Shown here: positions 1 to 25,800 of the stretch, one piece after another
How the letters are laid out: every line of letters starts with the position of its first letter
How positions within the stretch are numbered: position 1 is the stretch's first letter
NCBI GenBank assembly: GCA_017464685.1
Contig: JAFTYO010000022.1
Span: 2,836-66,835, forward strand
Reading direction: 5' to 3'
DNA length: 64,000 nucleotides
Origin: Alphaproteobacteria bacterium
GTDB lineage: Bacteria > Pseudomonadota > Alphaproteobacteria > RF32 > CAG-239
The notes under the pieces: model-generated
Seen by the model: only the letters and a program-made list of their open reading frames with translations
What the model was told of the DNA's origin: nothing
Database searches by the model: none
Made by a program: the position numbers and the translations under genes

Positions 1-178
1 CTGCAATTTTATAAGTTTTGGCATTTTTTCTTGAAAGAGCATTAATCGCCACCATTTCTGAAATAATATTAACTTTGTCTTTGCATTTTCCATACACTAT
101 GTTACGCATGGGAGCATCGGTAATTCCTGCCATAGGTGCTAAAAAAACATTACTCTTAAAATGTAAAAACGATGTCAT
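1..178 (-). CDS. dus: tRNA-dihydrouridine synthase, N-terminal part (gene runs off the window start)
   Basis: Minus-strand translation from the ATG at 178 gives MTSFLHFKSNVFLAPMAGITDAPMRNIVYGK..., containing the Dus family LAPMAGITD motif. The + strand ORF 18..329 is its antisense shadow. Confidence 0.6.
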   Translation of the reverse strand, partial: MTSFLHFKSNVFLAPMAGITDAPMRNIVYGKCKDKVNIISEMVAINALSRKNAKTYKIA

Positions 179-2469: not shown

Positions 2470-2544
2470 GCCGTTGTAGCTCAGTGGTAGAGCACGTCAT
2501 TGGTAATGACGGGGTCGTAAGTCCGATTCTTATCAGCGGCACCA
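2470..2544 (+). tRNA. tRNA-Thr (anticodon GGT)
   Basis: Cloverleaf read by hand: acceptor GCCGTTG/CAGCGGC, D-arm GCTC..GAGC, anticodon stem CGTCA/TGACG with loop TTGGTAA (GGT), T-arm, then discriminator A and CCA. Confidence 0.85.
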
Positions 2545-2580
2545 GTTTTTTATTAAGCCCTTATTTCAAGGGCTTTTTTT
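2527..2580 (+). repeat. attL: left copy of a 54-bp direct repeat (tRNA-Thr 3' end plus terminator)
   Basis: ATTCTTATCAGCGGCACCAGTTTTTTATTAAGCCCTTATT[T/G]CAAGGGCTTTTTT recurs at 7957..8010 with one mismatch. Confidence 0.75.
2555..2580 (+). terminator. rho-independent terminator after tRNA-Thr
   Basis: Hairpin AAGCCCTT-ATTTC-AAGGGCTT followed by a T-run. It lies inside the att repeat. Confidence 0.6.
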
Positions 2581-2778
2581 ATGCCTTATTTTCTGCCCAT
2601 TTTAACCAACACGAAAGACCTACACGTCACTGAAGACGTCAAACCCGTCAAAATCACCTCGTTTATTTGGATAAACCAACAATTCTTCCCGAACGGATTT
2701 GCAAGACATTTAAGACATTTGCCCGATTGCATTTCTACGATATTACCGAACTTTAAGACATTTGCCCATTTTTTGCCA

Positions 2779-3201
2779 TTATAGATACTTTAGCAACCTT
2801 TTTGTTATCAAACCTTGTCCCTCTTCATAAAGATTATCGAGGTGTTTTAGTTTATTTAGTCCGTCGTTTATCTGGGATATACCGGTTATTAAATGATGAA
2901 TTGCATCAAGTGACGGGTGTCTTTGTTCTGATAATATCATTCCAAAATAATATTTGTTCTTGCCTAGAAACTGCTCACTAAACTCATATTGTGTCTTAAT
3001 GTATCCTAGTTTCTTTAAGTATTTGAAGCACTTTACCAGAAATTTAGCATCCAATTTTTGCTGATTATATTGAGGATTGTCCATTTCCTCATTAACTTCT
3101 TGGTCTAATGGTTTTGTTGGTGTGATAACAGGAGTTTCTTTGGCAAAATATTGTTTTAATTCATTTATGTCTTTGTTTAATTGATTCATATCTATAATCA
3201 T
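2779..3201 (-). CDS. hypothetical protein (140 aa), island cargo
   Basis: An ORF between the tRNA and the integrase with no recognisable motif. Confidence 0.3.
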   Translation of the reverse strand: MIIDMNQLNKDINELKQYFAKETPVITPTKPLDQEVNEEMDNPQYNQQKLDAKFLVKCFKYLKKLGYIKTQYEFSEQFLGKNKYYFGMILSEQRHPSLDAIHHLITGISQINDGLNKLKHLDNLYEEGQGLITKRLLKYL

Positions 3202-3309
3202 TTTGTTTCCTCATATTTTATAAGTGTATTTATTGGAGCAATGATTAAAAACCGGAATGAATATAAAAAAACTCTGCCATTTAGCAGAGTTTGGATAGTT
3301 TCAAGGCTT

Positions 3310-4827
3310 TTATTTGAAATAATAACTTTCTCTGACCAATTTCTTTAATTCTTTTAGTTCTTTGCTTAATGGGTAGGAAATCTTGGATAATTCTTGGTAA
3401 ACAACCTTTATATCTTTTGTTTTTCCATAAAGTCTTTGACCTGTTCCTTTATCTGCCCAACCTGCTATGGCATTTTGATATTCTGCAGGCATTTTTACTT
3501 CAATAGCCTTGGTTTCAAAAGTATATCTGAATGAATGGAAAACTTTATCAGCTCCGGTTATACCCAATTTATCCAAATATCTGGCAAACCAACCTTGAAC
3601 TGCTCTACTATATTTTCCTCTTGCTGATTGTGATAATTCACTAAACAATTTTTTTTGCTTACTTTTCCTTTGAAAATCCACAAAATTTAAAAAACCAAGT
3701 TCTATAATCTGAGGGTGAATAGGTATAATTCGTTCAGAAGGCTTATTTTTTACAGACTTGTCTTTATCATCAGAATTAATAGATATACAAGGAATGCCTT
3801 TATTACTAACAATATCTTTTGTATTTAATTGGCAGATTTCATTTAATCTGCAACCGTGGTATAAAGCAATCAACGGAACCCAAAACTTAGCTTGATTACT
3901 CCTTAATTTAGGATTTATATATGTTTCAGGATTAAAAATCTTATGCAATTCCTTGCTTTCAAAAGGATTTCGTTGCTCATCTTCACAATTAATCGGAACA
4001 TCTACAAATTCATTTAGGTTTTGAGCAATAATTCCTTCCCTAACAGCATATTTCATAAAATTAATAAATGTATGCAAATATCCTTTAATTGTTCTTTTAG
4101 CCAACACTTTTGTAGGGGCATTTGTAAAAATTTCAGATATCTTTTTGCCTTCATCTAGAACACTGTTCCATTGTTTGGGAACTTGGTAAATCTTCTCGCT
4201 TAGTTTACGACAATCCTGCTTTGTTACTTCTTCTATATATGTCTTTCCCATAACAGCAAAGGCAAGTTTAATCCCTAAATACATTGTACGAACTCGTTCT
4301 TCCGGAACTCCTTTAAGGTTTTGTTTGTTCAAGGCATACTTTTTGAAGAACTTTTCCCAATGTGTTTTAGACATTGATTTGGTTAATCTTTCAGTTGTTT
4401 TAAGCTCATCATAGCTTCTCAAAAGTGTTTTAACCTTAGGATTACTTGGATTATATGGCTTATCTTGTTTAATTGCTTTGATACTATTTTGAGCATATCT
4501 TTCTAATGCTGAAATATGTGTTCCAAAACTCTTAAACCATTCATAACCATCTTTGGTTTTATCTTCTAAACCAAGCTCAATCTCTTTTTCTTTTAGTTTT
4601 GAATAAGTTGTTCTTAAAGTTACATTGGCTTGCGAACTATCAACCAAGCTTTTGAGATAATCAATAATCATCTCAACCATTAGCTCTTTTCTTTTATCAT
4701 CAGGAAGTTTGATATTATTAAAATTCTTTTTTCCCTCAACAATATCTTCAGCACTTTCTTCTATAAAATATTGGATTTGACTTAATCTTGCGAGCAGAAC
4801 TTTAAAGAAATACAACAAAGAATACAA
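3310..4827 (-). CDS. int: tyrosine-type site-specific integrase (505 aa)
   Basis: The C-terminal catalytic domain carries the conserved Arg box (LYHGCRLNE) and the H-x-x-R box (HSFRYTF), with a tyrosine-bearing tail. It lies immediately adjacent to attL and the tRNA. Confidence 0.8.
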   Translation of the reverse strand: MYSLLYFFKVLLARLSQIQYFIEESAEDIVEGKKNFNNIKLPDDKRKELMVEMIIDYLKSLVDSSQANVTLRTTYSKLKEKEIELGLEDKTKDGYEWFKSFGTHISALERYAQNSIKAIKQDKPYNPSNPKVKTLLRSYDELKTTERLTKSMSKTHWEKFFKKYALNKQNLKGVPEERVRTMYLGIKLAFAVMGKTYIEEVTKQDCRKLSEKIYQVPKQWNSVLDEGKKISEIFTNAPTKVLAKRTIKGYLHTFINFMKYAVREGIIAQNLNEFVDVPINCEDEQRNPFESKELHKIFNPETYINPKLRSNQAKFWVPLIALYHGCRLNEICQLNTKDIVSNKGIPCISINSDDKDKSVKNKPSERIIPIHPQIIELGFLNFVDFQRKSKQKKLFSELSQSARGKYSRAVQGWFARYLDKLGITGADKVFHSFRYTFETKAIEVKMPAEYQNAIAGWADKGTGQRLYGKTKDIKVVYQELSKISYPLSKELKELKKLVRESYYFK

Positions 4828-4866
4828 TATGCTCTATATTATATCAGAAAAAATAAAAACTGGAAT

Positions 4867-5742
4867 TTGTGGTTTAATATAAGAATTGCTCCCGATAATA
4901 ATATAAACAACACAACAACTGGTGAACAATGTGTTAACACGCTATTTGGTGTTATGTGTGATACATTAGATGAGCCTAAAAAAGATGTGGGATTAAATGT
5001 AATGCTCGGTGGTAATTATGAATTTAAACTATCAGATAAATGGCGACTAAAGAATGAGTTTATGGTTTATAATTCAAAATATGATGATAAAAAATACGAT
5101 GACACATATCTATATTATACCATAGGTGCAAGATACATTTATAAAAAAGGAGATATTTTCTTCGGACCCACTTTTTCAAAGAGATATCTTGCCCACAAAT
5201 CTTATAACTATTCAACCGGTTTTATGTTTGAAAAAAATTATGATGTAACAAAAAAGCTAAACGCAAACCTAACCTTAAACTATACGCCAACATATTATGA
5301 TGACTATTCGGATATTTTGGACGGCGATGTAAAAAGCGCCAGATTGCGCTTATTTTATGCATTAGATGCTTCAAAATATTTCATATTTAAGACAGGTTAC
5401 GAATATGAAAAAACCAAAGATGAAACATATACAAACGATAGGATAAATCTTGCTCTCGGTTTTGGTGCAGAATTGCCATACGGTTTTCATATATATGCCG
5501 AACCTTCAGTTATATTTACAAACTACAAAGGAAAACGTTGGACAGTTAAAGATTATAATTTTGAAGAGATTAAAGAAAAAGATACAACCCAACGATACTC
5601 TATATCTCTTTCTAACCGAAAAATATCATTTATGGGATTTGTTCCGACTTTAACATATTCTTACACTGATAAGAGTTCAAATATATGGCAAAGAGAATAT
5701 GAAAAATCTTTAATTGAGTTTACAATACAGAAAAGATTTTAA
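4867..5742 (+). CDS. outer-membrane beta-barrel protein fragment (291 aa, no signal peptide)
   Basis: Aromatic-rich sequence with alternating hydrophobicity that ends in a C-terminal Phe (TIQKRF). There is no N-terminal signal peptide, so it looks truncated. Confidence 0.4.
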   Translation: MWFNIRIAPDNNINNTTTGEQCVNTLFGVMCDTLDEPKKDVGLNVMLGGNYEFKLSDKWRLKNEFMVYNSKYDDKKYDDTYLYYTIGARYIYKKGDIFFGPTFSKRYLAHKSYNYSTGFMFEKNYDVTKKLNANLTLNYTPTYYDDYSDILDGDVKSARLRLFYALDASKYFIFKTGYEYEKTKDETYTNDRINLALGFGAELPYGFHIYAEPSVIFTNYKGKRWTVKDYNFEEIKEKDTTQRYSISLSNRKISFMGFVPTLTYSYTDKSSNIWQREYEKSLIEFTIQKRF

Positions 5743-5755
5743 TAAACATTCCACT

Positions 5756-5831
5756 TTTTAATCAAAATCATATTTTTTTAGATAAATAAAAATATGAGTA
5801 TAAGAAATGTATTAAATAATTTAGATTTAGT
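5756..5831 (+). repeat. 76-bp direct repeat, copy 1 (copy 2 at 7220..7295)
   Basis: The two copies are identical: TTTTAATCAAAATCATATTTTTTTAGATAAATAAAAATATGAGTATAAGAAATGTATTAAATAATTTAGATTTAGT. The repeat includes the start codon and first 13 codons of an ORF. Confidence 0.8.
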
Positions 5832-5897
5832 AGAAATATAATATATCCATCTATGAAAGGTAAAAACTTTATATTTTTATGTAGTTTTTCTTCCATA

Positions 5898-5933
5898 AAA
5901 GAAAAACTGTTGACTTTTTGTATCTTTTTCATA
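5898..5933 (+). promoter_or_regulatory. sigma70-like promoter upstream of the ATPase gene
   Basis: TTGACT, then an 18-nt spacer, then TATAAT, about 40 nt upstream of the 5971 start. Confidence 0.45.
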
Positions 5934-5970
5934 TATAATATAGTAAATTAAATAATTTTGGAGTTTTGAT

Positions 5971-7200
5971 ATGGAAAAGAAAAATCGTCCCAATTATATA
6001 CAGAAGTTGTTAGAATTCAAAGATAAGGAAGCAATAAAAGTTATAACAGGTATTCGTCGTTCCGGTAAATCCAGTATTTTAGAAGTGTACAGAAAACATT
6101 TGTTAGAGATTGGTGTATCTAATGATAACATATTTTATATGACTTTTGAATCATTAGTCAATAGGGATAAAACATATCGTCAGATTTATGACGAGATAAT
6201 TTCTTTTTCTAAAAAAACAATAGGAAAAGTATATATTTTTCTAGATGAAATTCAACAAATAAAGCAATGGGAACTTGCTGTAAACTCTTTACGGGTTGAT
6301 ATAGATTGTGATATTTATGTTACAGGTTCAAATGCATATTTACTTTCATCACAATTATCAACATACTTATCAGGAAGATATGTTGAAATAAAAGTGCTCC
6401 CATTATCATTTAAGGAATTTTTAGAATTTAATGAATTTGATGCCTCTAAAAGTTTAGAAGAAAAATTTTCAATGTATATCAAATATGGAGGTATGCCAAT
6501 ATTAACTGAATATGATTTTGATAATGAAAATGCTATATTTAGTGTATTAGAAGGTATTTTTACAACAGTTGTAATGGAAGATGTTATAAAACAGGCCTCT
6601 GTAAGAGAACCTGTTGTTTTGGATAAAATAATCAATTTCTTATCTGATAATATTGGAAATCCAGTTTCAACAAGTAAAATTAAAAATGTTTTAGCATCAG
6701 AACAAGAAAATATAGAAAAAAAGAACATTACTGCATCAACTGTAGATAATTATATCAATTTACTTGAAAATGCTTTTGTTTTTTATCCGATAAAAAGATA
6801 CGACATAAAAGGAAAAGAATATCTAAAAACACAAGAAAAATATTATATCGTTGATACAGGTTTAAGAAACCAAAGATTGGGATATAGAAACATAGATAGA
6901 GGATTTGTTCTAGAAAATATTGTATATTTTGAATTATTAAGACGAGGATATAAAGTATCTATCGGAAAAATAGGCGATAAAGAAATTGATTTTATTGCGA
7001 CAAAAACTAATGAAAAATTATATATTCAAGTAACAGAAACATTAGCAGGAGAAACAACCAGAGAAAGAGAATTAACTCCATTAAGAATGGTAAAAGACCA
7101 TTTTGAGAAGATTGTCTTAACCTCTGATGTTCTTTTTACCGGAACTTCAGAAGATGGAATAAAAATAATCAATTTGGCAAATTGGTTATTGGAAGAATAA
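5971..7200 (+). CDS. AAA+ ATPase of the DUF4143 family (409 aa)
   Basis: Walker A (GIRRSGKS), Walker B-like (IFLDEIQ) and the C-terminal region typical of the COG1373/DUF4143 ATPase family. Confidence 0.75.
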   Translation: MEKKNRPNYIQKLLEFKDKEAIKVITGIRRSGKSSILEVYRKHLLEIGVSNDNIFYMTFESLVNRDKTYRQIYDEIISFSKKTIGKVYIFLDEIQQIKQWELAVNSLRVDIDCDIYVTGSNAYLLSSQLSTYLSGRYVEIKVLPLSFKEFLEFNEFDASKSLEEKFSMYIKYGGMPILTEYDFDNENAIFSVLEGIFTTVVMEDVIKQASVREPVVLDKIINFLSDNIGNPVSTSKIKNVLASEQENIEKKNITASTVDNYINLLENAFVFYPIKRYDIKGKEYLKTQEKYYIVDTGLRNQRLGYRNIDRGFVLENIVYFELLRRGYKVSIGKIGDKEIDFIATKTNEKLYIQVTETLAGETTRERELTPLRMVKDHFEKIVLTSDVLFTGTSEDGIKIINLANWLLEE

Positions 7201-7219
7201 AAATCTAAAACATTCCGTA

Positions 7220-7295
7220 TTTTAATCAAAATCATATTTTTTTAGATAAATAAAAATATGAGTATAAGAAATGTATTAAATAATTTAGATTTAGT
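7220..7295 (+). repeat. 76-bp direct repeat, copy 2
   Basis: Identical to 5756..5831. Together the two copies bracket the ATPase cassette. Confidence 0.8.
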
Positions 7296-7575
7296 GATAT
7301 CAAAGAAAGGTCAGATATTAAGAAGGCCTGATATTGGAACTATTGTAATAAAAGATAGTGGAATTTGCACACATAATCATATTCCATTTACTTTAGAGAA
7401 CTTGGTTAGGCTTTGGACTGAGAACACTCACCCAAAAATTAAACACAATGGACACACCATATACATCTATAAAATCAAAATGATTGATTACAAATTTAAC
7501 ATTGTTGCTTTTGGCTGGGATGAAACTCTTCAAAAACCAGTTAAATTAAGCGGATTTGAATATTACCGGTCATAA
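7258..7575 (+). CDS. hypothetical protein (105 aa) whose 5' end is duplicated in repeat copy 1
   Basis: The start MSIRNVLNNLDLV... is shared with the truncated 15-codon ORF inside repeat copy 1. Confidence 0.3.
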   Translation: MSIRNVLNNLDLVISKKGQILRRPDIGTIVIKDSGICTHNHIPFTLENLVRLWTENTHPKIKHNGHTIYIYKIKMIDYKFNIVAFGWDETLQKPVKLSGFEYYRS

Positions 7576-7956
7576 AAGACAGATATGTATAAACATCAAT
7601 TCTTTCGGAAGTCGCTTAAATACTAAACTTGCGAGGTTTCTATGGTTAGGTCTGACGTGTAGACGAGCTCAAAAAAATCGCTTAAAAATAAATGAAAAAA
7701 ATCATTGTTTTTCAATTATTTCAATAAGTTAATCCCCATTTTCTTACTAGCGGCACCATTTCAAAAAAGCCTCCCTTGTGGAGGCTTTTTTGAAATGGTA
7801 TTGAAGATGGTCAGAAGCGGACTTACGAAGTAATGTCCGGAGCGGATAGTTGGTGAAAACGAGTGCAAAACTTTAGCGAATAGCTTAGTTTTGTGCAAAG
7901 TTTGAACCTTACGACGCGAAAGGGGCCTGTTGGCTAAATAGCCAATGGGAATTTAC

Positions 7957-8010
7957 ATTCTTATCAGCGGCACCAGTTTTTTATTAAGCCCTTATTGCAA
8001 GGGCTTTTTT
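7957..8010 (+). repeat. attR: right copy of the 54-bp direct repeat
   Basis: Near-identical to 2527..2580. It duplicates the last 18 nt of tRNA-Thr and its terminator. Confidence 0.75.
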
Positions 8011-9162: not shown

Positions 9163-9264
9163 AAATTTTATATAAAAAAATTGTTGACTTTTTAACTTAT
9201 TTGCGTTTTTGTATAATAGGTAATATTATTTACCCCGTATTTGCAATGTTTTTATAATTTTATA

Positions 9265-9624
9265 ATGAGTGTGACTATGACTATATATAAAAGAATATTC
9301 GTATTGTTGGTAACCATTTTGGTAACTGCCGTTATTAATACCACTAAAGCTGATATGTTAGACGTTGACTATATTTACCTTGCTGCCGGCAAGGGTGATA
9401 TAGATTATTTATCTCGTGTCGGTGAATATAACATTTCATTGGAAACGACCAATAAAGATGGTGATACACCTTTGTGTATTGCGGCAAGAAAGAAAAACGA
9501 AAAAGCATATAACACACTTATTAAAGCAGGAGCGAATCCAAATGCTCCTTGCACAAAAAACATTGCCGGTTATGGAGAATTTCAAGAAAAAACAATGGGT
9601 TCGATAGCATTCGGGGGGGGGTAG
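9265..9624 (+). CDS. signal-peptide plus ankyrin-repeat module (frame 1), the decoupled N-terminal part of the giant surface protein
   Basis: Predicted signal peptide (MTIYKRIFVLLVTILVTAVINTTKA), then an ANK repeat (DGDTPLCIAARKKNEKAYNTLIKAGANPN). The ORF ends ...FGGG* inside the poly-G run. Confidence 0.6.
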   Translation: MSVTMTIYKRIFVLLVTILVTAVINTTKADMLDVDYIYLAAGKGDIDYLSRVGEYNISLETTNKDGDTPLCIAARKKNEKAYNTLIKAGANPNAPCTKNIAGYGEFQEKTMGSIAFGGG

Positions 9625-12600
9625 TAAACTATTTTCTGGTTCTAAACTGGCTTGGACTGCCGGAACACTTGCTGTTCTTGGAGGTGCTGCTGCACTCGCC
9701 GGTGGCGGCGGTGGCGGCGGTAGTGATGGCTGCCATAAGTTTCTTGGTGATGATGGTGTTTGCTATGAAATAGTTGAGTGTGTTCATGGTAATCAATATA
9801 GAGACCTTTGTGTTTGCGATAAAGGTTGGGAAGGCACACTTTGTGATACTTCGGTGATTTGTGATTCCGGTTATGTCGGTATAGGTGAATGTCCTCTTGG
9901 CTACTATAATAACAAAAACAGCACTTCTTGCAACTCCGGTAACAATGTTTTGTATGAATGCAAACAACATACAGATCCGAATTGTAAAAACGGTAGTCCT
10001 GTCAAAGACGAGTGTATGGTGTGTAATGAAGGATATGAAGTAGACAGCAGCGGTTTGTGTGTGGCTAAAGATTGCGGTGCTGATTATGCCGAGTTGGGAC
10101 AATGCGGCGCAGGAATGTGGAATGATGACACTAAAGACAGTTGTCAATCTGCCTCAACCATGTTGTATAAGTGCTATGAACACAAAGAAGTTGAAAAATG
10201 TGCAAGTTATGATGAAATATCAGACGTTTGTGTCGATTGCGAATACGGATATGTTTTAAAAGGCGGAAAATGTGAAGTTAACCAATGTAAATCCTCTTAT
10301 TACTTAGTTGATAGCTGTCCGAATGGTTACTGGCAAAATAAAACCGATGAATGTAAGCAAGGTGAAGAATTAAAATATAACTGTGTTGCAAGAAACAATA
10401 AGACAGGTTGTGCAACATATGATCCATATTCTGACACTTGTTTATCTTGTGTAAGCAACGGATATGATTTGGTTGATGGCAAGTGCGAGGTTCACGATTG
10501 TGATGATAATATTTATGCTTTACAAGGTAAGTGCGCAACTGGTTGGAATGCCGCAACAACCGATACTCTTTGTACTGAAGGCACTGTTAAAAAATATGAG
10601 TGTAAAGCACATACTGCTCCTACAAATCTTTGTAAAACATATGACAAAGGTAAAGATGCATGTTCAGTATGTTATGAAGGATATACTCCTTCAGGTAGCC
10701 AATGTGTAGAGGTTGATTGTGGTGACTCATATAAAGAGTATGGTAAATGTGCTTATGAAAATGGCTATTATAATAACGATAGCACAGGAAAATGTGTGTC
10801 CGGTACTACACAACTGTTTAAATGTGTAAAAAATTCTGATAATAACTGTATTCAAAGTAGTCCTATTGAAGATAAGTGTATTCAATGTAAAGATGGATAT
10901 ACACCTAACGCTAATGGTAAGTGTGTAGTTAAAAATTGTGAAGGTGACTATGCTAAACTTGGTAACTGTGGAACGGGTAAATATAATAACGAAACTACTA
11001 ACCATTGTAAATCCGGTGAAGATGATTTGTATCTTTGTTTGGTAAATGATGTTGCAAATTGTACAACAACTTCAAAAGATTCAAATACTTGCGTTACTTG
11101 TGATACTGGATACAATCTGAAAGAAGGAAAATGTGAAATAAATCAATGTGGTGATGAATATAAGACATCTGGTCAATGTGGCGATGGGTATTATAACATC
11201 GCCTCAGCATCAACCGGTAATTACTGTGATGAGGGTTCAACCAAAAAGTATAAGTGTCAAACACAAGTAGAAGTTGACAACTGTAATATATATAGTGCAA
11301 CTTCAAAAGGCTGCGCACAATGTAAAGATGGTTGGAATGAAAAAGCAAGTTCAACAAGTTGTCCAATTAATACGTGTGACAATTATGCTAATGTTGGTGC
11401 GTGCACAACTGGTTGGAACGATAACTCGCAAAAGACATGTAACATTGGTACCAACACAGTGTATTACTGCCAAGCCCATACAAAAGTTGACCGTTGTGTA
11501 ACCTATAATCCGAGAGCAAATGAATGTGCGGTATGTACCGAAGGTTATACAGGTGCTCAATGTACTGAATGTGATACCGGATATAAATCAGATGGAAACG
11601 GCGTATGCTATCCGGACTTAAATTGTCAGCATGGTACAACACAAAATGGAGATAAGTGTGATTGTGCTGATACCGGATTTACAGGTGACGAATGTAATGT
11701 TTGTGAAAGCAGACAAGTAGAAGGGGATTATTGTTATCCTAAGCTTGAATGCCAATATGGCGGAACACAAAACAAAAACACCTGTGAATGTCCAGCTGGC
11801 TTTAGTGGAGATTATTGTGAAATATGCCCCAGTGGTGATATTGTTGAAACAAATGGTGTGTACGAATGTAAAGCTTTGGTGGGTTGTTTGCATGGTGGAA
11901 CTCAAGTAAACGGTATGTGTGTCTGCAAAACTGAAGATGCGGAAAATACTACGGTTGCGAACTGGACCGGAGATAAGTGTCAGACTTGTCAGAGCGGAGA
12001 CAGTTTAGGAGATACCTGTTTTGCAAAACGTACAGATTGTAATACACAAAACAGTTCGGGACAAAAGTATGGTGAATGTGTGTGTGCAAACGGATGGAGC
12101 GGAGATACTTGCGACACTTGTGATGGTTTGGTTTCTGATGGTGCATGTATTCCGACATATGCCGCTTGCGGAAGCAACGGTGTATGGTCATATGCCAATA
12201 ACAAATGTGAATGTGATGAAGGCTACAGTGGTGACAGATGTGAAATAGCTCCAACAATTGAATTAAATTGTCAGCACGGAGGAACACCAAATGCCGAAGG
12301 AACAGCATGTGTATGTACCGCTAATTGGAGTGGAACAGAATGTACCTCTTGTTCAAGTGGTGACTATGAAGGTGATACTTGTTACCAGAAAATAGATTGT
12401 AAAAACTACGGAACACAGAAAAAAGGTGTGTGTGAATGTAACTTTAGTAACTGGACCGGTGCTGATTGTAGCGTGTGTCCTAATGGTTATGTAGAACAAA
12501 CTGTATCGGGTGTTTCACTTTGTTTGACACCTGAAGAAAATACAAGAGGATGTATGTTCGGTGAGATTGTAGGTGACAGTTGTGAATGTTACAATGGTTG

Positions 12601-15600
12601 GTCCGGTACAAATTGTGATGAGTGTCAATTTAATGGAGTAGCTGGAGTTGTAAAAGGCAATGTTTGTTACGAAAAAATGGATTGCGTAAATGGTACTCAA
12701 GATGGTGGTAGATGTTCATGTGATTCCGGATGGACAGGAACATATTGCGATATACAAACGACTCCTAATAACTACAACTTTTCTAAAACAATAAATGTTA
12801 CAAAAACAGATGCTACCACGGGTGAAAATGTTGTCGGCTTAGAACATAACGGTTCTGCCTCAAACAAAATCGGTACATGGACAGATCTTTACAATGCATA
12901 TGTTAAAGATGCCGGAACACTTGATGATACATATCAAATTTCGGTAAACAATACAAATCCTGCTAACAGCAGTAATACATTCGGTATGAAAAATGATACC
13001 GGTAATGCATATACCATTTATGTAAATGGTATCAACAATACAATTGCAGGTGTTCTAAAATCTGTTATTAATGTAACTCATGAAACTACAGTAGAAAATA
13101 AGAGTGCTTCATACTCTATGTATGGTATACACGCCGAAAACGATGTGGTTACAATTAAAAAAGATGGCAGTAAGGCAAACGGTCTTGACGTTTCAAGTGA
13201 GATTAATGTAACATATAAAGATACTTATGAAGGCACTTATGAGGCTGATACCGGTGTAAAGGTTGAATTGTATGGTATTCATAGTAAGTCAGGAGATGTT
13301 CATAACACTTCAAACTCTACTATTAATGTAAAATCAGAAGTAACAAGAACAGCTTATAAGCCACATACATATTTATATGGTGCATATTCCAGACGTGGTG
13401 ATGCGACAAATGATGGTATCATTAAGTTAACAGGAGCAACAGATGGTCCTGCTTATGGCCTGTATGCTGCTCTTAATGCAATTAACAATAATGAGATACA
13501 AATTTCGGGTGAGGCTGCAGCTTATGGTATCTTCGGAGCTGAATCGGCAACTAGTAGCGGAAGTGTAGCCGTAGAAGTTAGTAAACAAGGTGATGCTTAT
13601 GGTATTCGTACCCCCGGTGCCGCAAATTTAAGCGGAACCCTTAGTGTTACAACCAAATCTGGAGCCGCATATGGTGTGCATGCAAATAATAACATCACCA
13701 ACACAAACAGTATAACCACAGTTAGCGGTACAAGTGCTTACGGTCTTAAGAGTAATGATGGCAAGGTTACAAGTACAGGAGGTAGCATTAATGTTACAAG
13801 TACAACCGGTTCTGCATATGGTATTCAGACCGGTAAAGGAGTTGTAAGTAACAGTGATATAACTGTTAAAGGTACAAAAACCTCAACAAATTCTGTTTTC
13901 GGTATTAGTGCCGGTGATGCTGTAACTAACAATGGCGGTAAAATAGATGTTACGTCGTCTTCCTCATCATATGATTATCGTAATGCTTATGGTATTAATA
14001 CCTCAAGCGGCAAGGTTACCAATAGTGGTACAATTACGGTTAACGGTAATACTTATGGTGGTTCAATTTATGGCGTGAATACTCCAACCGGAATTGATAA
14101 CACAAATGGTACAATTATCGCAACAGCGAAAGGAAATTATACAGATGCATATGGTGTTTATACTTCAAGTAGTGTTGATATGAGTAAATTAGGTACAATA
14201 AAAGCCAGTGCCAGTGGTAGTATTGCAGATGCTGTGGCTGTTTATTTTGGAACAGGCAGTGTAAACTTAAACAATACAAACACGGCTAATTTGTCCGCAT
14301 CGAGTAGTTATATCAGATATCTTTTTGAAGGAGCAAATGGAACAACAATTACAAGCTCAGCTAACATTAATGCCGGCTTAAAAGCAGGAACGGTTAATAA
14401 TAGCGCTACACTATCCGGTGCTCTTTATGGTATTTATGCCTATAATACCGCAAGCAACACAGGAACCGTTAATGCTACATCCTCACATTATACCAGTACA
14501 CGAGGTATATATGCTGGCGGAACTGTTTCAAACATAGGTGGTACGGTAAATATTACCGGAAATACAAGCGATTATACCAGTTATGGTATCCAGTCAAACA
14601 ATGGTGGTATAGACAACACCAATGGTAAAGTTACAGCCAGTGCCGGTGAGGTTTATGGCCTGTATGCAAGTAATGAAACTATTAATAATACAAATGGTCA
14701 TGTTGAGGTTTCAGGAAGTTATTCGGGTACTTATACTTCCTACACAGGAGGTATTAAGACATCTGGTGGTAATGTTAATAATAACTTAGGTACTGTTATA
14801 ACTCAGAGTAAGAACGATTATGTTTATGGTATCCAGACATCCACAGGTTCCGTAAACAATAGTGAGGGTGCTGTTACCGTGAACGGAACACATACAAATA
14901 ATCAGAATGTTTACGGTATCTACACATCAAGTGGCGAAATTAATAACGGACGCGGAAGTATTGATGTTACAGGTATTTCAAGTAATGTTTACGGTATATA
15001 TACAACAAGTGGTGTAGTTAATAACCTAAAAGGTAGTATTAAAGTTGAAACCGTTGAGGAAGCAACGGGAAGCGCATATGGTATTTACACTAAAGGTGCT
15101 ATTGATTCAAACGCACTTGGTTCAATAGTTGTTTCGTCAGAAAATGGTAAGGCAGTTGGTGTTCACTTTGAAAAAGGTACAATTGAGTTAACCAATACAA
15201 ATACACGAGATATCACCGTAACCGGACAAGAAAGATTGTTGTTTGAAGGAGCAACCGGTACAACCTTAAAGAACTCTGCAATTATTCAAGCCGGTATTAA
15301 GGCAGAAAATGTTGAAAACATCGGAACAATTAATGGTGGTAAGTATGGTATATATGCAGACAAGACGGTTAAAAACACCGGAACTGTTACTGCACAATCA
15401 GATACAACAGCATATGGTATTTATACCAATGGTACGCTTGATTTATCAGGATTTACAGGTTCTGTAACAGCTACAGCTCAGGATAAAGCGGTTGGTGTTT
15501 ATTTTGGACAAGGCGAAGTTGAAATTAGCGCTGCAGCAGCAGGAAACATTACGGTTAGCGGCAGTGGTGAACTTTATGTTATTGAAGGTGCAGAAGAAAC

Positions 15601-18391
15601 AAAAGTTACTAATAATGCACAGTTTAATAATGGAGGTATAAAAGCCGGAGATGTTTACAACAACGGAATAATCAGTGCCGGTGGTAAATATGGTATTTAT
15701 GCTTATAACGAGGCTGTAAATACTGCTGCAATCACAAGTTCAGAATATGGTATTTATGCCGGTGGAAATGTTGATAACAGCGCTAATATTACAACAACTA
15801 ATAGCTATAATAAAGCATACGGAATTCGTGGTGATTCAGTCAAAAACTCTAAAAGAGTTACGGTTACTTCTGCAAACAATGTGGCTTATGGTATATATGC
15901 TTTAAGTTCTGTAGAAAATACAGGTGGTACAATCAATGTTACATCAACTACGAAGGATGCATATGGTATTTATACCAATGGCAGCATTGATTTATCGAAA
16001 CTTGGTACAATTACCGTAAAAGCAGGTGCAACCGGTACAGCTGTTGGTGTTCGCTTTGCAAACGATACACTATTGTTAACCGGTAATCATGGTATAAGTA
16101 TAACCAGTGGTTTGGAACGCTATTTGTTTGAGGGTGGAAAAAATACAACCATTAATAATAACGCAACCATCTCAGCCGGTTTGAAAGCTGAAAACATCAC
16201 AAATACCGGTACCATAAGTTCATCAGGTATAAGAGGTGTTTGGGCATCATCGAATATAACAAACAGTGGTACAATTAAAGCTACTGCAAACTATGATAGT
16301 GTGTATGGCACTTACTTAGATAATGTTAATGCAACATTTGATAATACAAATGGTAAAATTGTAGCAACCAATAATAGTACCTCCTCTTCTACTGTATATG
16401 GTATATTCACAAAAGGTGCAGTAGATGTAAATAAACTTGGAACGATTACTGCATCATCAAATACAACAAATGGTAAGACAATCGGTGTTCATTTTGAAGA
16501 TGGAACTTTAACATTGAATAATGACTTGACCAATTTTACCTTAACAGGAAGAGAAAAGTATCTGTTTAACGGTGGTGTTGAAACTAAAATTGTTAACAAT
16601 GCAAACCTTACAAAGGGCGGATTATCAACCGAGCAAGGTACTATTGAAAATAATGTTAGTATAACAACCGATTCTAGCACAGGTATATATGCTAAAACCG
16701 GAACGGTGATTAATAGTGGTGACATATCCGTCAGTGGATCTTCTGGTAAGTTATATGGTATTAGAGCTGAAGAAGGCTCAACTGTTACCAATACGGGTAA
16801 TGTTACTGTAACTAAATCTGGCAGTTCTGCTGAAGCTTATGGCGTTTATTTAGATGGTAGTACTTTTGATAACCAAGGTGCAATTGAAGTTAAAAACACC
16901 TACAATTCATATTATTCTAAAATGTATGGCGTTTATGCAACAAACGGATCTGTTGTAACAAACAGTGGTACAATTAAGATAACCAGCACTTCCGGCACAA
17001 AAGAATGTGATTCAACAAATTGTAAGGCAAGTACTTCGGCTCCAACTACATCTACACCTGTATTTGTCTACACAAGTTCGGATTCAACTTTTAAAAATAA
17101 CGGTGCGGTAGCATCGGTAGCTTCACTCAATTTGGATACTGATTTTGGTGAAGGTCAGGTAATGCTTGCTCAAAACGGTTCATTTAGTGCTCCATCATTG
17201 ATGGGTTCATTAGGTGTTGCAACCGATGTAGTTGAAGAAGGTTTTGAAAATACGTATACTGTACAAAATGCCATTGTATCTGATGATACAACCGGATTAA
17301 ATCTAACCTCAACTTCTGCATTATTTGATGCAACATTAGATGGACAAGATGTTGTTATGAATAAAAAAGACTTTGCTGATGTGGTTGAAAATGCTTCAAT
17401 GGCAGAGTTTTTAGAAAATAACTACAAATTTGAAAATAATGCCTCATTGTTTGAAACATTGAAGAAACAGAACAATGTGGCAATGCTTAATGATGTAGTT
17501 GATGTATTATCCGGTAGCGATTTGAAACGCTTCAACTTTGAAGATATGCTAATGTTAAAAGAAGTTAGCGCAGATATGAACAATAAACTATTTGAAAATA
17601 AAAATAAAAACGAATACTTTACACTAACCGGAAATACTAATACCACATATTTTGAAGAAAATTCGTCTGCAAATTCCAGATGGATGATAAGCGGTAAGAA
17701 ACTTGGTAAGAAGAGTTATGGTATGGGTATTGTGTTTAGTAATCTTCGTTCATATGACGATGATAGTTCAAATAATCGTGAAGATGAATCTGTACAACTC
17801 TTGATGCCATTTGGTTATAATACACATAACTTTGAGTTTATCGCAATGCCAAGATTGGGATATTCTTACGGAACATATACTCGTAATGGTATTGATAACC
17901 TCAATTATGATGGTACAATTGAAAAACGTATATTTGGATTAAATACGGCCTTTCGTTATCCAGTTGAAGTTAATGATTGGAAGTTATATCCAACTATGGA
18001 ATTCAATGCAATCAATTATTTAGTTGATGGTAGTGAAGAAAATAAACCATATGCGTTGGATATTGACAGACAAAACATTACTTCTGCAGAAATTGGTGTG
18101 GGCTTGAATGCATCCAAATCATATAACTTTGATAAAAATCACAATATGAAAGTAAACTTTGGATTGATGGCTTATCATGAGTTCTTAGATCCTTATGAGT
18201 TAAAACTTTCTATGAGAGGTATGGACGGTTCATGGCGTATTAAAGATGAACGTCGCAAAGATAACCATATAACCATAAATGGTGGATTTGAATATAATTT
18301 AGTTCCGTTTGCCGTATATGGTAATGTGTTCTCTTATATTGACAGTGAATATAATACTAAGGCTGATTTAGGATTAAAGTACGCTTTCTAG
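9608..18391 (+). CDS. giant cysteine-rich-repeat, autotransporter-like surface protein (frame 2 open from 9608; ~2,927 codons)
   Basis: Gly-rich linker, then ~9 tandem ~57-aa 8-Cys repeats and ~12 EGF-like CxCxxGWxGxxC repeats. After these come ~50 degenerate (S/T)AYG(I/V)(Y/H) repeats. The C-terminal ~240 aa are beta-barrel-like and end ...LKYAF. The annotated GTG start at 9854 is not a real start. Confidence 0.7.
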   Translation, partial: HSGGGSKLFSGSKLAWTAGTLAVLGGAAALAGGGGGGGSDGCHKFLGDDGVCYEIVECVHGNQYRDLCVCDKGWEGTLCDTSVICDSGYVGIGECPLGYYNNKNSTSCNSGNNVLYECKQHTDPNCKNGSPVKDECMVCNEGYEVDSSGLCVAKDCGADYAELGQCGAGMWNDDTKDSCQSASTMLYKCYEHKEVEKCASYDEISDVCVDCEYGYVLKGGKCEVNQCKSSYYLVDSCPNGYWQNKTDECKQGEELKYNCVARNNKTGCATYDPYSDTCLSCVSNGYDLVDGKCEVHDCDDNIYALQGKCATGWNAATTDTLCTEGTVKKYECKAHTAPTNLCKTYDKGKDACSVCYEGYTPSGSQCVEVDCGDSYKEYGKCAYENGYYNNDSTGKCVSGTTQLFKCVKNSDNNCIQSSPIEDKCIQCKDGYTPNANGKCVVKNCEGDYAKLGNCGTGKYNNETTNHCKSGEDDLYLCLVNDVANCTTTSKDSNTCVTCDTGYNLKEGKCEINQCGDEYKTSGQCGDGYYNIASASTGNYCDEGSTKKYKCQTQVEVDNCNIYSATSKGCAQCKDGWNEKASSTSCPINTCDNYANVGACTTGWNDNSQKTCNIGTNTVYYCQAHTKVDRCVTYNPRANECAVCTEGYTGAQCTECDTGYKSDGNGVCYPDLNCQHGTTQNGDKCDCADTGFTGDECNVCESRQVEGDYCYPKLECQYGGTQNKNTCECPAGFSGDYCEICPSGDIVETNGVYECKALVGCLHGGTQVNGMCVCKTEDAENTTVANWTGDKCQTCQSGDSLGDTCFAKRTDCNTQNSSGQKYGECVCANGWSGDTCDTCDGLVSDGACIPTYAACGSNGVWSYANNKCECDEGYSGDRCEIAPTIELNCQHGGTPNAEGTACVCTANWSGTECTSCSSGDYEGDTCYQKIDCKNYGTQKKGVCECNFSNWTGADCSVCPNGYVEQTVSGVSLCLTPEENTRGCMFGEIVGDSCECYNGWSGTNCDECQFNGVAGVVKGNVCYEKMDCVNGTQDGGRCSCDSGWTGTYCDIQTTPNNYNFSKTINVTKTDATTGENVVGLEHNGSASNKIGTWTDLYNAYVKDAGTLDDTYQISVNNTNPANSSNTFGMKNDTGNAYTIYVNGINNTIAGVLKSVINVTHETTVENKSASYSMYGIHAENDVVTIKKDGSKANGLDVSSEINVTYKDTYEGTYEADTGVKVELYGIHSKSGDVHNTSNSTINVKSEVTRTAYKPHTYLYGAYSRRGDATNDGIIKLTGATDGPAYGLYAALNAINNNEIQISGEAAAYGIFGAESATSSGSVAVEVSKQGDAYGIRTPGAANLSGTLSVTTKSGAAYGVHANNNITNTNSITTVSGTSAYGLKSNDGKVTSTGGSINVTSTTGSAYGIQTGKGVVSNSDITVKGTKTSTNSVFGISAGDAVTNNGGKIDVTSSSSSYDYRNAYGINTSSGKVTNSGTITVNGNTYGGSIYGVNTPTGIDNTNGTIIATAKGNYTDAYGVYTSSSVDMSKLGTIKASASGSIADAVAVYFGTGSVNLNNTNTANLSASSSYIRYLFEGANGTTITSSANINAGLKAGTVNNSATLSGALYGIYAYNTASNTGTVNATSSHYTSTRGIYAGGTVSNIGGTVNITGNTSDYTSYGIQSNNGGIDNTNGKVTASAGEVYGLYASNETINNTNGHVEVSGSYSGTYTSYTGGIKTSGGNVNNNLGTVITQSKNDYVYGIQTSTGSVNNSEGAVTVNGTHTNNQNVYGIYTSSGEINNGRGSIDVTGISSNVYGIYTTSGVVNNLKGSIKVETVEEATGSAYGIYTKGAIDSNALGSIVVSSENGKAVGVHFEKGTIELTNTNTRDITVTGQERLLFEGATGTTLKNSAIIQAGIKAENVENIGTINGGKYGIYADKTVKNTGTVTAQSDTTAYGIYTNGTLDLSGFTGSVTATAQDKAVGVYFGQGEVEISAAAAGNITVSGSGELYVIEGAEETKVTNNAQFNNGGIKAGDVYNNGIISAGGKYGIYAYNEAVNTAAITSSEYGIYAGGNVDNSANITTTNSYNKAYGIRGDSVKNSKRVTVTSANNVAYGIYALSSVENTGGTINVTSTTKDAYGIYTNGSIDLSKLGTITVKAGATGTAVGVRFANDTLLLTGNHGISITSGLERYLFEGGKNTTINNNATISAGLKAENITNTGTISSSGIRGVWASSNITNSGTIKATANYDSVYGTYLDNVNATFDNTNGKIVATNNSTSSSTVYGIFTKGAVDVNKLGTITASSNTTNGKTIGVHFEDGTLTLNNDLTNFTLTGREKYLFNGGVETKIVNNANLTKGGLSTEQGTIENNVSITTDSSTGIYAKTGTVINSGDISVSGSSGKLYGIRAEEGSTVTNTGNVTVTKSGSSAEAYGVYLDGSTFDNQGAIEVKNTYNSYYSKMYGVYATNGSVVTNSGTIKITSTSGTKECDSTNCKASTSAPTTSTPVFVYTSSDSTFKNNGAVASVASLNLDTDFGEGQVMLAQNGSFSAPSLMGSLGVATDVVEEGFENTYTVQNAIVSDDTTGLNLTSTSALFDATLDGQDVVMNKKDFADVVENASMAEFLENNYKFENNASLFETLKKQNNVAMLNDVVDVLSGSDLKRFNFEDMLMLKEVSADMNNKLFENKNKNEYFTLTGNTNTTYFEENSSANSRWMISGKKLGKKSYGMGIVFSNLRSYDDDSSNNREDESVQLLMPFGYNTHNFEFIAMPRLGYSYGTYTRNGIDNLNYDGTIEKRIFGLNTAFRYPVEVNDWKLYPTMEFNAINYLVDGSEENKPYALDIDRQNITSAEIGVGLNASKSYNFDKNHNMKVNFGLMAYHEFLDPYELKLSMRGMDGSWRIKDERRKDNHITINGGFEYNLVPFAVYGNVFSYIDSEYNTKADLGLKYAF
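9613..9621 (+). repeat. poly-G homopolymer (9 G), a candidate slipped-strand phase-variation tract
   Basis: A 9-G run in an otherwise AT-rich genome. A 1-nt loss (or a 2-nt gain) would fuse frame 1 (signal peptide plus ANK) to frame 2 (the giant ORF). Confidence 0.7.
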
Positions 18392-18409: not shown

Positions 18410-18437
18410 AAAACCGCTCTTTTTGAGCGGTTTTTTG
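18410..18437 (+). terminator. rho-independent terminator after the giant gene
   Basis: AAAACCGCTC-TTTTT-GAGCGGTTTTTT. Confidence 0.7.
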
Positions 18438-18560
18438 TGTTATTATACATTAGCTAAAAAATTGACAATTTAATATTATCTGACTTGAAAAATTTTTCCT
18501 TTACATTTTTATCACAAAATGATAGTATAGACTATGTAAAATTTAGTCGAATGATTTATA

Positions 18561-24210: not shown

Positions 24211-24287
24211 CGGATTGTAGTTCAGCCTGGTAGAACGCTTCGTTCGGGTCGAAGAGGTCGCTAGTTCGAATCTAGTCAATCCGACCA
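24211..24287 (+). tRNA. tRNA-Pro (anticodon CGG)
   Basis: Acceptor CGGATTG/CAATCCG, anticodon stem CTTCG/CGAAG with loop TTCGGGT (G37), T-arm GGTCG..TTCGAAT, then ACCA. Confidence 0.85.
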
Positions 24288-25796
24288 TACATGACGAAAG
24301 CCTCCAGAGAGGATGTTCTCTAGAGGCTTTCTTATTGAAAATAAAGGATTTTTTCCTTCTAGCAAAAAGTTCGAATAAAGCAATTTTAAAACCTTCCGTT
24401 TTTCTTGGCAATTCGAACTTTCATAAATCTCAGGTATCTTAGATACCAATAAAATCAGCTCTTCTAAGCTGTTTAACCCTTGCTTTGTTACTTCATTATA
24501 ATGTGATAATTTTTTATCTAGATTTTCGATTTGTTTTGTAATTTCATCATATTTTTTATTATATTGTTCCTGTGTAATACTATTATTAAGACGCATATCA
24601 AGCAACATATCCAAATTGTTTTCCAACTGAGTCTTTTTGCTTTTCAAAATCCGTCTTTCCTCTATTTCTATTTTGTGCTTTTCTTTAATTTCTTGTTGAA
24701 TCAAAACCAATGTATCTTCAAGTAGCTTTAACGGCATTTTTTTGAGCCTACACAAGTCATCTTTAATTTTAGCGTCAACTATATTCTCGTTAATACGAGT
24801 GTCTTTACAATGAGGGCAAAACAGATATTTATGCACGCGACCGTTTTGTTTATATTTGACATCCGGCGTAATCATTTTTCCGCAATGTTTGCAAAATATC
24901 ATACCGCGATATACGTCCTCAACTTTACGCTTCCGATGGAAAGACCTCCCGAGGAGGAGGTCTTGGCATTTATCAAATAATTCTTTACTTATGAGCTTTT
25001 CGTAATTGTGAGGGTAAAGTTTACCGTAGCACTTCATAAAACCGTAGTAAAACGGATTCTTTAGCATATTTATGATTGTTTGCTTATGAACTTTGTTCTT
25101 TTGTTTCTTTTTATACCGTCTCGTTTTAAAACCCAATTCGTCCGCGAGACGTGTCAAATCTGCCAATGAATATGTACCTGTCGCATATTCACGAAATAAT
25201 TTTTTTACAATCGGTCCCATAATCGGGTCAACCAGAATAGTTGTACTGTGTCTGCTATAGCGTTCGTTATAATACCCGACAGGAGCACCGCTAAAATATT
25301 CTCCGGTATCAGGCATGGCTTCCATTCCTCTTTTAACGTTATCCGACAGATTGCTAGTGTAACCTGAGGCAAGTAATATTTCAAATTGATATCTCATCCA
25401 ATCGTTACCAGATGAGTGTTTATTCAAAACCAATCCGCTTGTTACAAAATGAAGTTGCACCCCATTCATAACCAAATCATAAATTGTGCTATATTCTTTA
25501 AAGCTACGTTGCAACCTATCCACTTTATCACACACAATGGCAATCGGTGGCTTTTGTTTTTTTATAAAATCTATTACCTCATTAAATTGTTTTCTGGGAC
25601 CCCTTGTTGAACTTTCCTCAAAGGAAATAGTTTTTATAATAGGCATATGAAGGCGCTCGCAATATTGCTTGATACGACTATCTTGTGCATCCAACGAATA
25701 CCCTTCTGCTTGTTCGCGCGTTGATACGCGAGAAAAAGAAACAGCTTTAATATTTTGTGCCATATTTTTTTCACTTTCATTTATAAATTTTGTCAT
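24276..25796 (-). CDS. large serine recombinase (506 aa)
   Basis: N-terminal resolvase-type catalytic domain (AVSFSRVSTREQ, VCDKVDRLQRS), then a recombinase domain, a Cys4 zinc ribbon (CKHCG...CPHCKD) and a coiled coil. Its 3' end overlaps the 3' end of tRNA-Pro by ~12 nt. Confidence 0.8.
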   Translation of the reverse strand: MTKFINESEKNMAQNIKAVSFSRVSTREQAEGYSLDAQDSRIKQYCERLHMPIIKTISFEESSTRGPRKQFNEVIDFIKKQKPPIAIVCDKVDRLQRSFKEYSTIYDLVMNGVQLHFVTSGLVLNKHSSGNDWMRYQFEILLASGYTSNLSDNVKRGMEAMPDTGEYFSGAPVGYYNERYSRHSTTILVDPIMGPIVKKLFREYATGTYSLADLTRLADELGFKTRRYKKKQKNKVHKQTIINMLKNPFYYGFMKCYGKLYPHNYEKLISKELFDKCQDLLLGRSFHRKRKVEDVYRGMIFCKHCGKMITPDVKYKQNGRVHKYLFCPHCKDTRINENIVDAKIKDDLCRLKKMPLKLLEDTLVLIQQEIKEKHKIEIEERRILKSKKTQLENNLDMLLDMRLNNSITQEQYNKKYDEITKQIENLDKKLSHYNEVTKQGLNSLEELILLVSKIPEIYESSNCQEKRKVLKLLYSNFLLEGKNPLFSIRKPLENILSGGFRHVWSD

Positions 25797-25800
25797 GATT

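Follow-up and report, generated by a model that had tools for sequence, protein, structure and literature searches.

The window analysed here, a 64,000-nucleotide stretch of contig JAFTYO010000022.1 whose own numbering is used throughout, harbours at positions 9265-18391 what is probably one gene for a type Va monomeric autotransporter, its expression probably being gated by a run of nine guanines (G9). The protein belongs to an unnamed and gut-restricted family with cysteine-rich passengers far beyond the type V norm, and its gene is interrupted at a selected homopolymer, most likely a phase switch that now stands in the OFF position.

As sequenced, the gene is split into an open reading frame (ORF) of 119 aa and a frame of 2,928 codons without a start. 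The main frame is free of stops from 9608 to the stop codon at 18389-18391 of the forward strand. It is bounded on the 5′ side by TAG 9605-9607, its earliest ATG, GTG or TTG is GTG 9854, and its 8.8 kb carry no second lesion, all 2,928 codons being intact. Nor does the main frame bear its own signal peptide. The upstream ORF runs from 9265 to TAG 9622-9624 in a frame other than the main frame (alternative starts are TTG 9241 and ATG 9277). A predicted signal peptide at 9265-9351, recognised in the sequence by its basic n-region, hydrophobic core and small-residue site, and an ankyrin (ANK) module sit in this upstream frame, outside the main frame, and a promoter-like site lies just 5′ of start codon 9265. 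The two frames overlap only at the nine-G run at 9613-9621, right before the upstream TAG. Removal of one G (G8) or addition of two (G11) yields a fused gene of 3,041 codons. An earlier note on this DNA, made from the sequence alone, had combined ANK with the other zones in one giant protein; the ANK module is present, in the other frame, and is joined to the rest only if G9 changes length. That note did not mention that ANK and the sole signal peptide lie in a separate frame.

Among 5.8 billion proteins searched for homologues, no more than 15 relatives were recovered, the best of which shares 43% identity over 88% of the query. Three of them, P0001-P0003, were read whole; each is a single ORF whose parts follow one another as in the fused gene, namely signal peptide, ANK-like region, Ala/Gly-rich hydrophobic segment, poly-Gly, Cys-rich modules, repetitive passenger, and barrel with a terminal aromatic residue. 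The N-terminal, hydrophobic/poly-Gly and barrel landmarks were confirmed in 15 of the 15 homologues. The signal peptide is in frame in all of them; in the window it is joined only at G8 or G11. No terminator was found between the upstream ORF and the main frame. Because the homologues read whole are single ORFs, 57 of 58 full-length relatives share the N-terminal module, the main frame lacks a start before 9854, and the only terminator-like hairpin of the two positions lies at 18410 and not between the ORFs, the region is best regarded as one gene. NCBI lists the upstream fragment as a separate hypothetical protein, and the main part is called as a 2,845-aa ORF in public assemblies. Since the relatives share the N-terminal cassette, the ORF so called lacks the true start and the signal peptide.

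The tract is exactly G9 in 8 of 8 independent assemblies, which are 99.9-100% identical to the window and come from several samples in ENA and Logan. It is the sole G/C run of at least 7 in the 64 kb, where no runs of 7 or 8 occur, and GGG accounts for 2 of the 353 other Gly codons of the gene (0.6%). Tracts were also surveyed in 1.29 Mb of related loci, of which family genes make up 29%. All six G/C runs of at least 8 were located inside family genes or at most 80 nt upstream of them (p=7e-4), and four of the six were within -200 to +700 of the ORF start (p=4e-5). Similar to a contingency locus, the window carries a simple repeat at a frame junction, and the length of the repeat sets the frame. 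Tract positions, bases and needed corrections differ among relatives (Table 1), which argues for slippage at the DNA level rather than conserved recoding. Phase variation by slipped-strand mispairing is thus the best reading of these sequences.

Domains were scanned zone by zone; scans of the whole protein with Pfam and NCBIfam hid the matches to epidermal growth factor (EGF)-like and Autotransporter families. The whole 2,927-aa product gave two sub-threshold EGF matches and zero Autotransporter matches in Pfam, so that composition bias masks real domains in such giant repetitive proteins. In the upstream module, Pfam Ank scored 25.6 bits (cut-off 21.1) and Ank_2 26.7 bits, just below its cut-off of 27.3. 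The Ank match was also above the cut-off in the homologues P0001 and P0014. The hydrophobic segment that follows was found in 16 of 16 family proteins inspected, with a Kyte-Doolittle 19-mer mean of 1.5-2.2 and an estimated translocon-scale free energy sum of +0.8 to +3.0 kcal/mol. By these values it is marginal as a membrane helix, so that passage through Sec is probable. In composition it presumably resembles glycine-zipper and fusion-peptide segments and the VacA N-terminus.

The passenger possesses 122 Cys within its distal ~1,000 residues. In the first Cys-rich zone, eight modules recur every 65-76 aa, 71 aa being the usual spacing. In the second zone, an alignment of 10 units defined the EGF-like unit by six Cys with the pattern C4-x-C5 and C5-x8-C6; the partial unit holds four Cys. 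The region 11600-12790 matched EGF_2 (46.3 bits, cut-off 22.1), EGF_Teneurin (43.7 bits, cut-off 24.3) and EGF_laminin (31.7 bits, cut-off 21). A search of the EGF zone against PDB sequences gave no match at E<=1e-3. The isolated unit at 9731-9844 is EGF-like by Cys spacing and by alignment with the array, its Pfam matches being weak and below the cut-off.

The Cys-free stalk is built of ~50 coils of ~25 aa with the core (A/S)YG(I/V/L). Strict [YF]G[IVL] cores number 33, mostly spaced by 23-30 aa, and five inserts of 90-120 aa carry the motif RYLFEG...AGLKA. Sequence searches of the stalk in Pfam, NCBIfam and the PDB found nothing. The last 780 aa were modelled with AlphaFold from a 12-sequence alignment, and the model reached a predicted local distance difference test (pLDDT) of 86.8 and a predicted template modelling score (pTM) of 0.72. 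The model starts with an all-beta stalk of ~310 residues; a disordered linker at the CxxxxC loop comes next, and a beta domain and then a helical region lead to the barrel. The last 313 stalk residues were modelled as all-beta with a block pLDDT of mostly 80-96, and the low-confidence segment spans model residues 316-335, which is the CxxxxC linker. Most of the homologues aligned keep this loop, and processing might take place here. A long helix is predicted at model residues 490-516; the first barrel strand comes next, at 523, and the barrel occupies model residues 523-778.

When the C-terminal 476 aa were scanned, Autotransporter (PF03797) matched with 45.8 bits against a cut-off of 26, covering 17759-18301. 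The first 18 Foldseek matches in the PDB were all type Va beta-domains, including AaaA (E=1.8e-9), EspP (TM 0.70), NalP (TM 0.67), EstA, AIDA-I, BrkA and Hbp. By the modelled fold, the translocator is a type Va beta-barrel. A precomputed annotation also lists BigA_3rd (PF27417) for the product, without a position in the protein.

These results agree with much of what had been read from the letters. The four zones of the earlier note are real and lie where it placed them (9854-11563, 11570-12748, ~12749-16993, and the barrel at ~17615-18388). The searches it proposed with EGF/laminin-EGF, ANK and Autotransporter models were all above the cut-off when run on separate zones. The type Va-like barrel ending in LKYAF was recovered by PF03797, AlphaFold and Foldseek, structure prediction of the C-terminus giving a type Va barrel, so that both the barrel prediction and the EGF-type matches were obtained. 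The repeat counts needed revision. The nine modules of about 57 aa do carry eight Cys each, and they are eight modules of ~71 aa. The proposed twelve EGF repeats are EGF-like by Pfam and amount to nine full units, one partial and one isolated. The roughly fifty passenger repeats stand as ~50 coils, of ~25 aa instead of ~30.

From N- to C-terminus, the fused protein would consist of a Sec signal peptide, ANK, a hydrophobic and poly-Gly segment, a Cys rod of ~1,000 aa, a Cys-free stalk of ~1,400 aa, a helical linker and a barrel. After Sec export, the barrel would be inserted into the outer membrane with the aid of the beta-barrel assembly machinery (BAM) and would export the passenger in C-to-N direction, the stalk folding first. 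With the stalk as a spacer, the Cys rod and the ANK tip may then stand out from the cell and serve as a surface coat or as an adhesin with a putative binding partner. At G9, the signal peptide and ANK are out of frame with the remainder, which would correspond to the OFF state; a slip to G8 or G11 would turn the gene ON.

Several points weigh against this picture. Tract-length variation was not observed and an ON allele was never seen in the eight assemblies, which are near-clonal consensus sequences and give little power. The closest homologues (43-48% identity) carry no tract at the G9 site, and a search of JGI metagenomes with the exact 24-nt tract pattern gave no further copies. The beta-solenoid of the stalk was not confirmed by structure search, in which barrel matches dominated. 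Type V secretion proteins have a low Cys content with closely spaced Cys, and chlamydial Pmps with up to 18 Cys were cited as notable (review PMC8151025). Export of a passenger with ~120 Cys would conflict with this norm, so that surface display of the rod is hypothetical. By contrast, the stalk-proximal CxxxxC loop fits the rule of few and close Cys.

As no length variants were seen and the homologues are tractless, a pseudogene or +1 frameshifting at GGG_TAG_T has to be considered. A recent pseudogene, in which a 1-bp indel inactivated an autotransporter gene that is now decaying, appears rather unlikely. It would account for the OFF state of every assembly of the strain, for the annotation of the upstream fragment apart from the 2,845-aa ORF, and for the several family members in other MAGs (metagenome-assembled genomes) that are likewise out of frame. 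However, the downstream 8.8 kb are without a second lesion, and the lesion lies in G9, which departs strongly from the base composition and codon usage around it. Moreover, long G/C runs are confined to the family across the 1.29 Mb surveyed, a pattern that a chance lesion leaves unexplained.

Recoding, with a functional G9 and a full-length protein made at a low constitutive level by +1 frameshifting or RNA-polymerase slippage, is quite improbable. The frameshift would take place at GGG_TAG_T, where a P-site Gly tRNA slips onto GGT beside a stop codon and the G run stimulates the shift like an internal Shine-Dalgarno sequence, a mechanism known from prfB. The G9 consensus across 8 assemblies, the in-frame TAG directly after the tract, a needed shift of +1 and the 2,928 intact downstream codons are consistent with such a mechanism. 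Nevertheless, the tracts of relatives are found elsewhere, with another base and another correction (C11 in L048, G9 in L063, promoter G11 in L034), and no conserved stimulatory structure turned up, although no search for one was made. Slippage during transcription is known chiefly from runs of A or T. Finally, a homopolymer error of sequencing or assembly in an intact gene is highly improbable, for although homopolymers invite errors and the sequence stems from a MAG, eight separate assemblies from two repositories all agree on exactly G9.

The phase-variable autotransporter gene proposed here belongs to a family with 96 relatives in species-representative genomes, 58 of them full length. The N-terminal cassette is present in 57 of the 58 full-length relatives. 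The 71-aa, 8-Cys module was found in only 5 of the 58, and the ends are thus constant and the middle swappable. At least 40 Cys occur in 41 of the 58, and relatives reach 195 Cys. Several MAGs possess two to four paralogues with differing middles, such as L026, L028, L049 and L052 in RGIG7089, L025 and L037 in UBA3650, and L086 and L091 in MGBC103325. Such paralogues indicate that the family is multigenic and that its ends stay constant. The gene was found to have no tandem repeats at the DNA level through which recombination might generate variants, and the modules are therefore old and diverged.

Almost all relatives stem from MAGs of uncultured Alphaproteobacteria that live in the gut of ruminants, humans, rabbits or mice. 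The window matches a ruminant-gut MAG named Alphaproteobacteria bacterium (MBQ8870368.1, locus tag IJ019_03225), and near-identical contigs of the locus were present in ruminant gut metagenome assemblies. The gut MAGs bear out the host-associated bacterium presumed beforehand, and the host-interaction role presumed with it is conceivable. No description of the family was found in the literature, and the family is unnamed.

A profile of the 71-aa module was searched against 1.84 billion representative proteins and gave 308 matches at E<=1e-3. Among the 149 new matches listed, about 14 are members of the same autotransporter family. In the remaining new matches listed, ~10% of the residues are Cys, a signal peptide is present and the C-terminus forms a hydrophobic tail, and Pfam VSP (PF03302) was matched by five of the five such proteins tested, three of them above the cut-off, with up to 125 bits. 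Zone 1 itself had no match to Pfam VSP at E<=10 and does not qualify as a member of that family. Scores per repeat were ~20-25 bits with a very large composition bias, for which reason homology of the 71-aa module to VSP-like proteins of protists was not accepted as proven. The module and these proteins are assigned to one broad class of CxxC/GY hairpin repeats, with neither homology nor transfer proven. A metagenome contig (L096, 64-5767) encodes a Cys-rich relative of the VSP-like proteins. Long ORFs (1,264 and 609 aa) appear there only if Gln is assigned to TAA and TAG, which indicates that the contig is protist DNA, such as that of a ciliate or hexamitid.

By the prevailing view, type V secretion copes only with passengers that are unfolded or minimally cross-linked. 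The Cys load of the family, 40-195 per protein, challenges this rule: either the rule is wrong, or the passenger is kept reduced in the periplasm, or folding takes place only outside. With its constant ends, swappable middle and apparent homopolymer switches, the family is a candidate major surface antigen for a poorly known clade of gut Alphaproteobacteria. We also consider, as a speculation with little probability, that the family is a bacterial counterpart of the variant surface proteins of protists, in which anaerobic gut Alphaproteobacteria form switchable and interchangeable coats of >100 Cys through type V secretion, with furin-like/VSP-like and EGF-like modules that maybe came from gut protists. 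If true, this would imply that heavily disulfide-prone passengers can be exported by a type Va system. The invariant N-terminal cassette of ANK, a fusion-peptide-like or VacA-like Gly/Ala hydrophobic segment and poly-Gly would then be a new distal-tip element, for example one inserting into a target membrane.

Table 1. Features of the autotransporter gene and its surroundings in the window, and homopolymeric tracts in related loci. Residues refer to the fused 3,041-codon product.
Locus	Feature	Position	Strand	Residues	Remarks
Window	Promoter-like site	9229..9258	+		TTTACC, 18-nt spacer, TATAAT; 10/12 consensus; pattern match alone
Window	Start codon and predicted Sec-type signal peptide	9265..9351	+	1-29	MSVTMTIYKRIFVLLVTILVTAVINTTKA followed by D; read from sequence
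Window	Ankyrin module, ~2 repeats	9364..9549	+	34-95	Pfam Ank
Window	G9 homopolymer	9613..9621	+	117-119 (Gly-Gly-Gly)	Divides upstream and main frames
Window	Ala/Gly-rich hydrophobic segment, then Gly7	9644..9721	+	127-152	LAWTAGTLAVLGGAAALA
Window	Isolated EGF-like unit	9731..9844	+	156-193	Six Cys
Window	Eight tandem ~71-aa modules	9854..11563	+	197-766	8 invariant Cys each; furin-like/VSP-like class
Window	EGF-like array	11570..12748	+	769-1161	9 complete + 1 partial unit, ~43 aa
Window	Cys-free passenger stalk	12749..16993	+	1162-2576	~50 coils and five inserts
Window	CxxxxC loop and Ser/Thr/Pro-rich linker	16994..17065	+	2577-2600	C2581, C2586; low model confidence
Window	Pre-barrel beta domain and helical region	17066..17596	+	2601-2777	AlphaFold secondary structure
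Window	Type Va translocator barrel	17615..18388	+	2784-3041	Ends LKYAF; stop 18389-18391
Window	Intrinsic-terminator-like hairpin and T tail	18410..18444	+		Strong; hairpin 18410-18434; 10-bp stem; 0.0 expected in shuffles
L048	C11 tract	7798-7808			Between signal peptide and ANK; out of frame
L063	G9 tract	53-61			In poly-Gly region; out of frame
L058	G8 tract	6863-6870			In poly-Gly region; in frame
L034	G11 tract	7726-7736			In promoter region, ~70 nt 5′ of start codon

The autotransporter gene is flanked by a nucleotidyltransferase gene on the upstream side and, downstream, by a gene for a 422-aa protein of unknown function; neither is evidently linked to it in function, and the closest homologue is located in a different genomic context. 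Further upstream, tRNA-Thr (2470-2544) precedes genes for an integrase (3310-4827, reverse strand), DUF6626, a SlipAM-family protein, an AAA_14/DUF4143 ATPase and a 105-aa ORF. The 3′ end of this tRNA is contained in a 40-nt direct repeat (2526-2565 and 7957-7996), and the region 2470-7996 has the appearance of an island of 5.4 kb that was integrated here and has kept its att sites intact. A location of the autotransporter gene within a mobile island was rejected, as the tRNA-Thr island ends at 7996, ~1.3 kb upstream. Downstream of the gene, tRNA-Pro (24211-24287) abuts a 506-aa serine-recombinase-like ORF (24276-25796, reverse strand), followed by a 459-aa ORF (25801-27180). The region 24211-27180 may be a second mobile element; a repeat of the tRNA-Pro end was sought within the window and none was found. 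A 963-aa ORF at 28656-31547, with SNF2/DEAH-helicase-like motifs recognised by eye, lies near small ORFs and the recombinase region and might belong to a defence or mobile module.

Similar to the EGF arrays of animal tenascin, teneurin and laminin, the array in the window is composed of six-Cys units that show the signatures C-x-C and G-aromatic-x-G-x2-C and follow one another head to tail, only 2 linker residues apart. Compared with the animal arrays, the C1-C2 loop is extended, giving units of ~43 aa. The likeness of the 71-aa module to the VSP/furin-like repeats of Giardia consists in the C-x2-C...GY...C hairpin unit. The link to Giardia VSP runs only indirectly, via proteins pulled by the module profile. 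The furin-like repeats of R-spondin were the best fold matches of the module, and these matches were insignificant.

With the type Va proteins EspP, NalP, EstA, AaaA, AIDA-I, BrkA and Hbp, the product shares a C-terminal barrel preceded by a helix (TM 0.67-0.70, target-normalised), an aromatic residue at the end and a beta passenger that is large and repetitive; a predicted signal peptide would be added at the N-terminus in the fused form. It differs from the solved type Va proteins in its 122 Cys in EGF/furin-like modules, in its N-terminus with ANK and a hydrophobic Gly-rich segment, and in the helical bundle before the pore helix, and barrel identity is only 10-15%. The chlamydial Pmps are likewise a multigene type Va family with repetitive and unusually Cys-rich passengers. 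In contrast to them, the product carries ~7x more Cys, arranged in EGF/furin-like modules, and has no Pfam Pmp match. The GGA(I/L/V)/FxxN repeats, which we take to be typical of Pmp, are absent. Poly-G tracts occur in some pmp genes. Autotransporter genes that vary in phase through homopolymeric tracts are also present in Neisseria, Haemophilus, Helicobacter and Campylobacter; to our knowledge, no contingency loci have been described in uncultured gut Alphaproteobacteria. In the family described here switching is inferred and tract positions vary among relatives, whereas the G/C tract in the 5′ coding region or promoter is a feature shared with those phase-variable genes.

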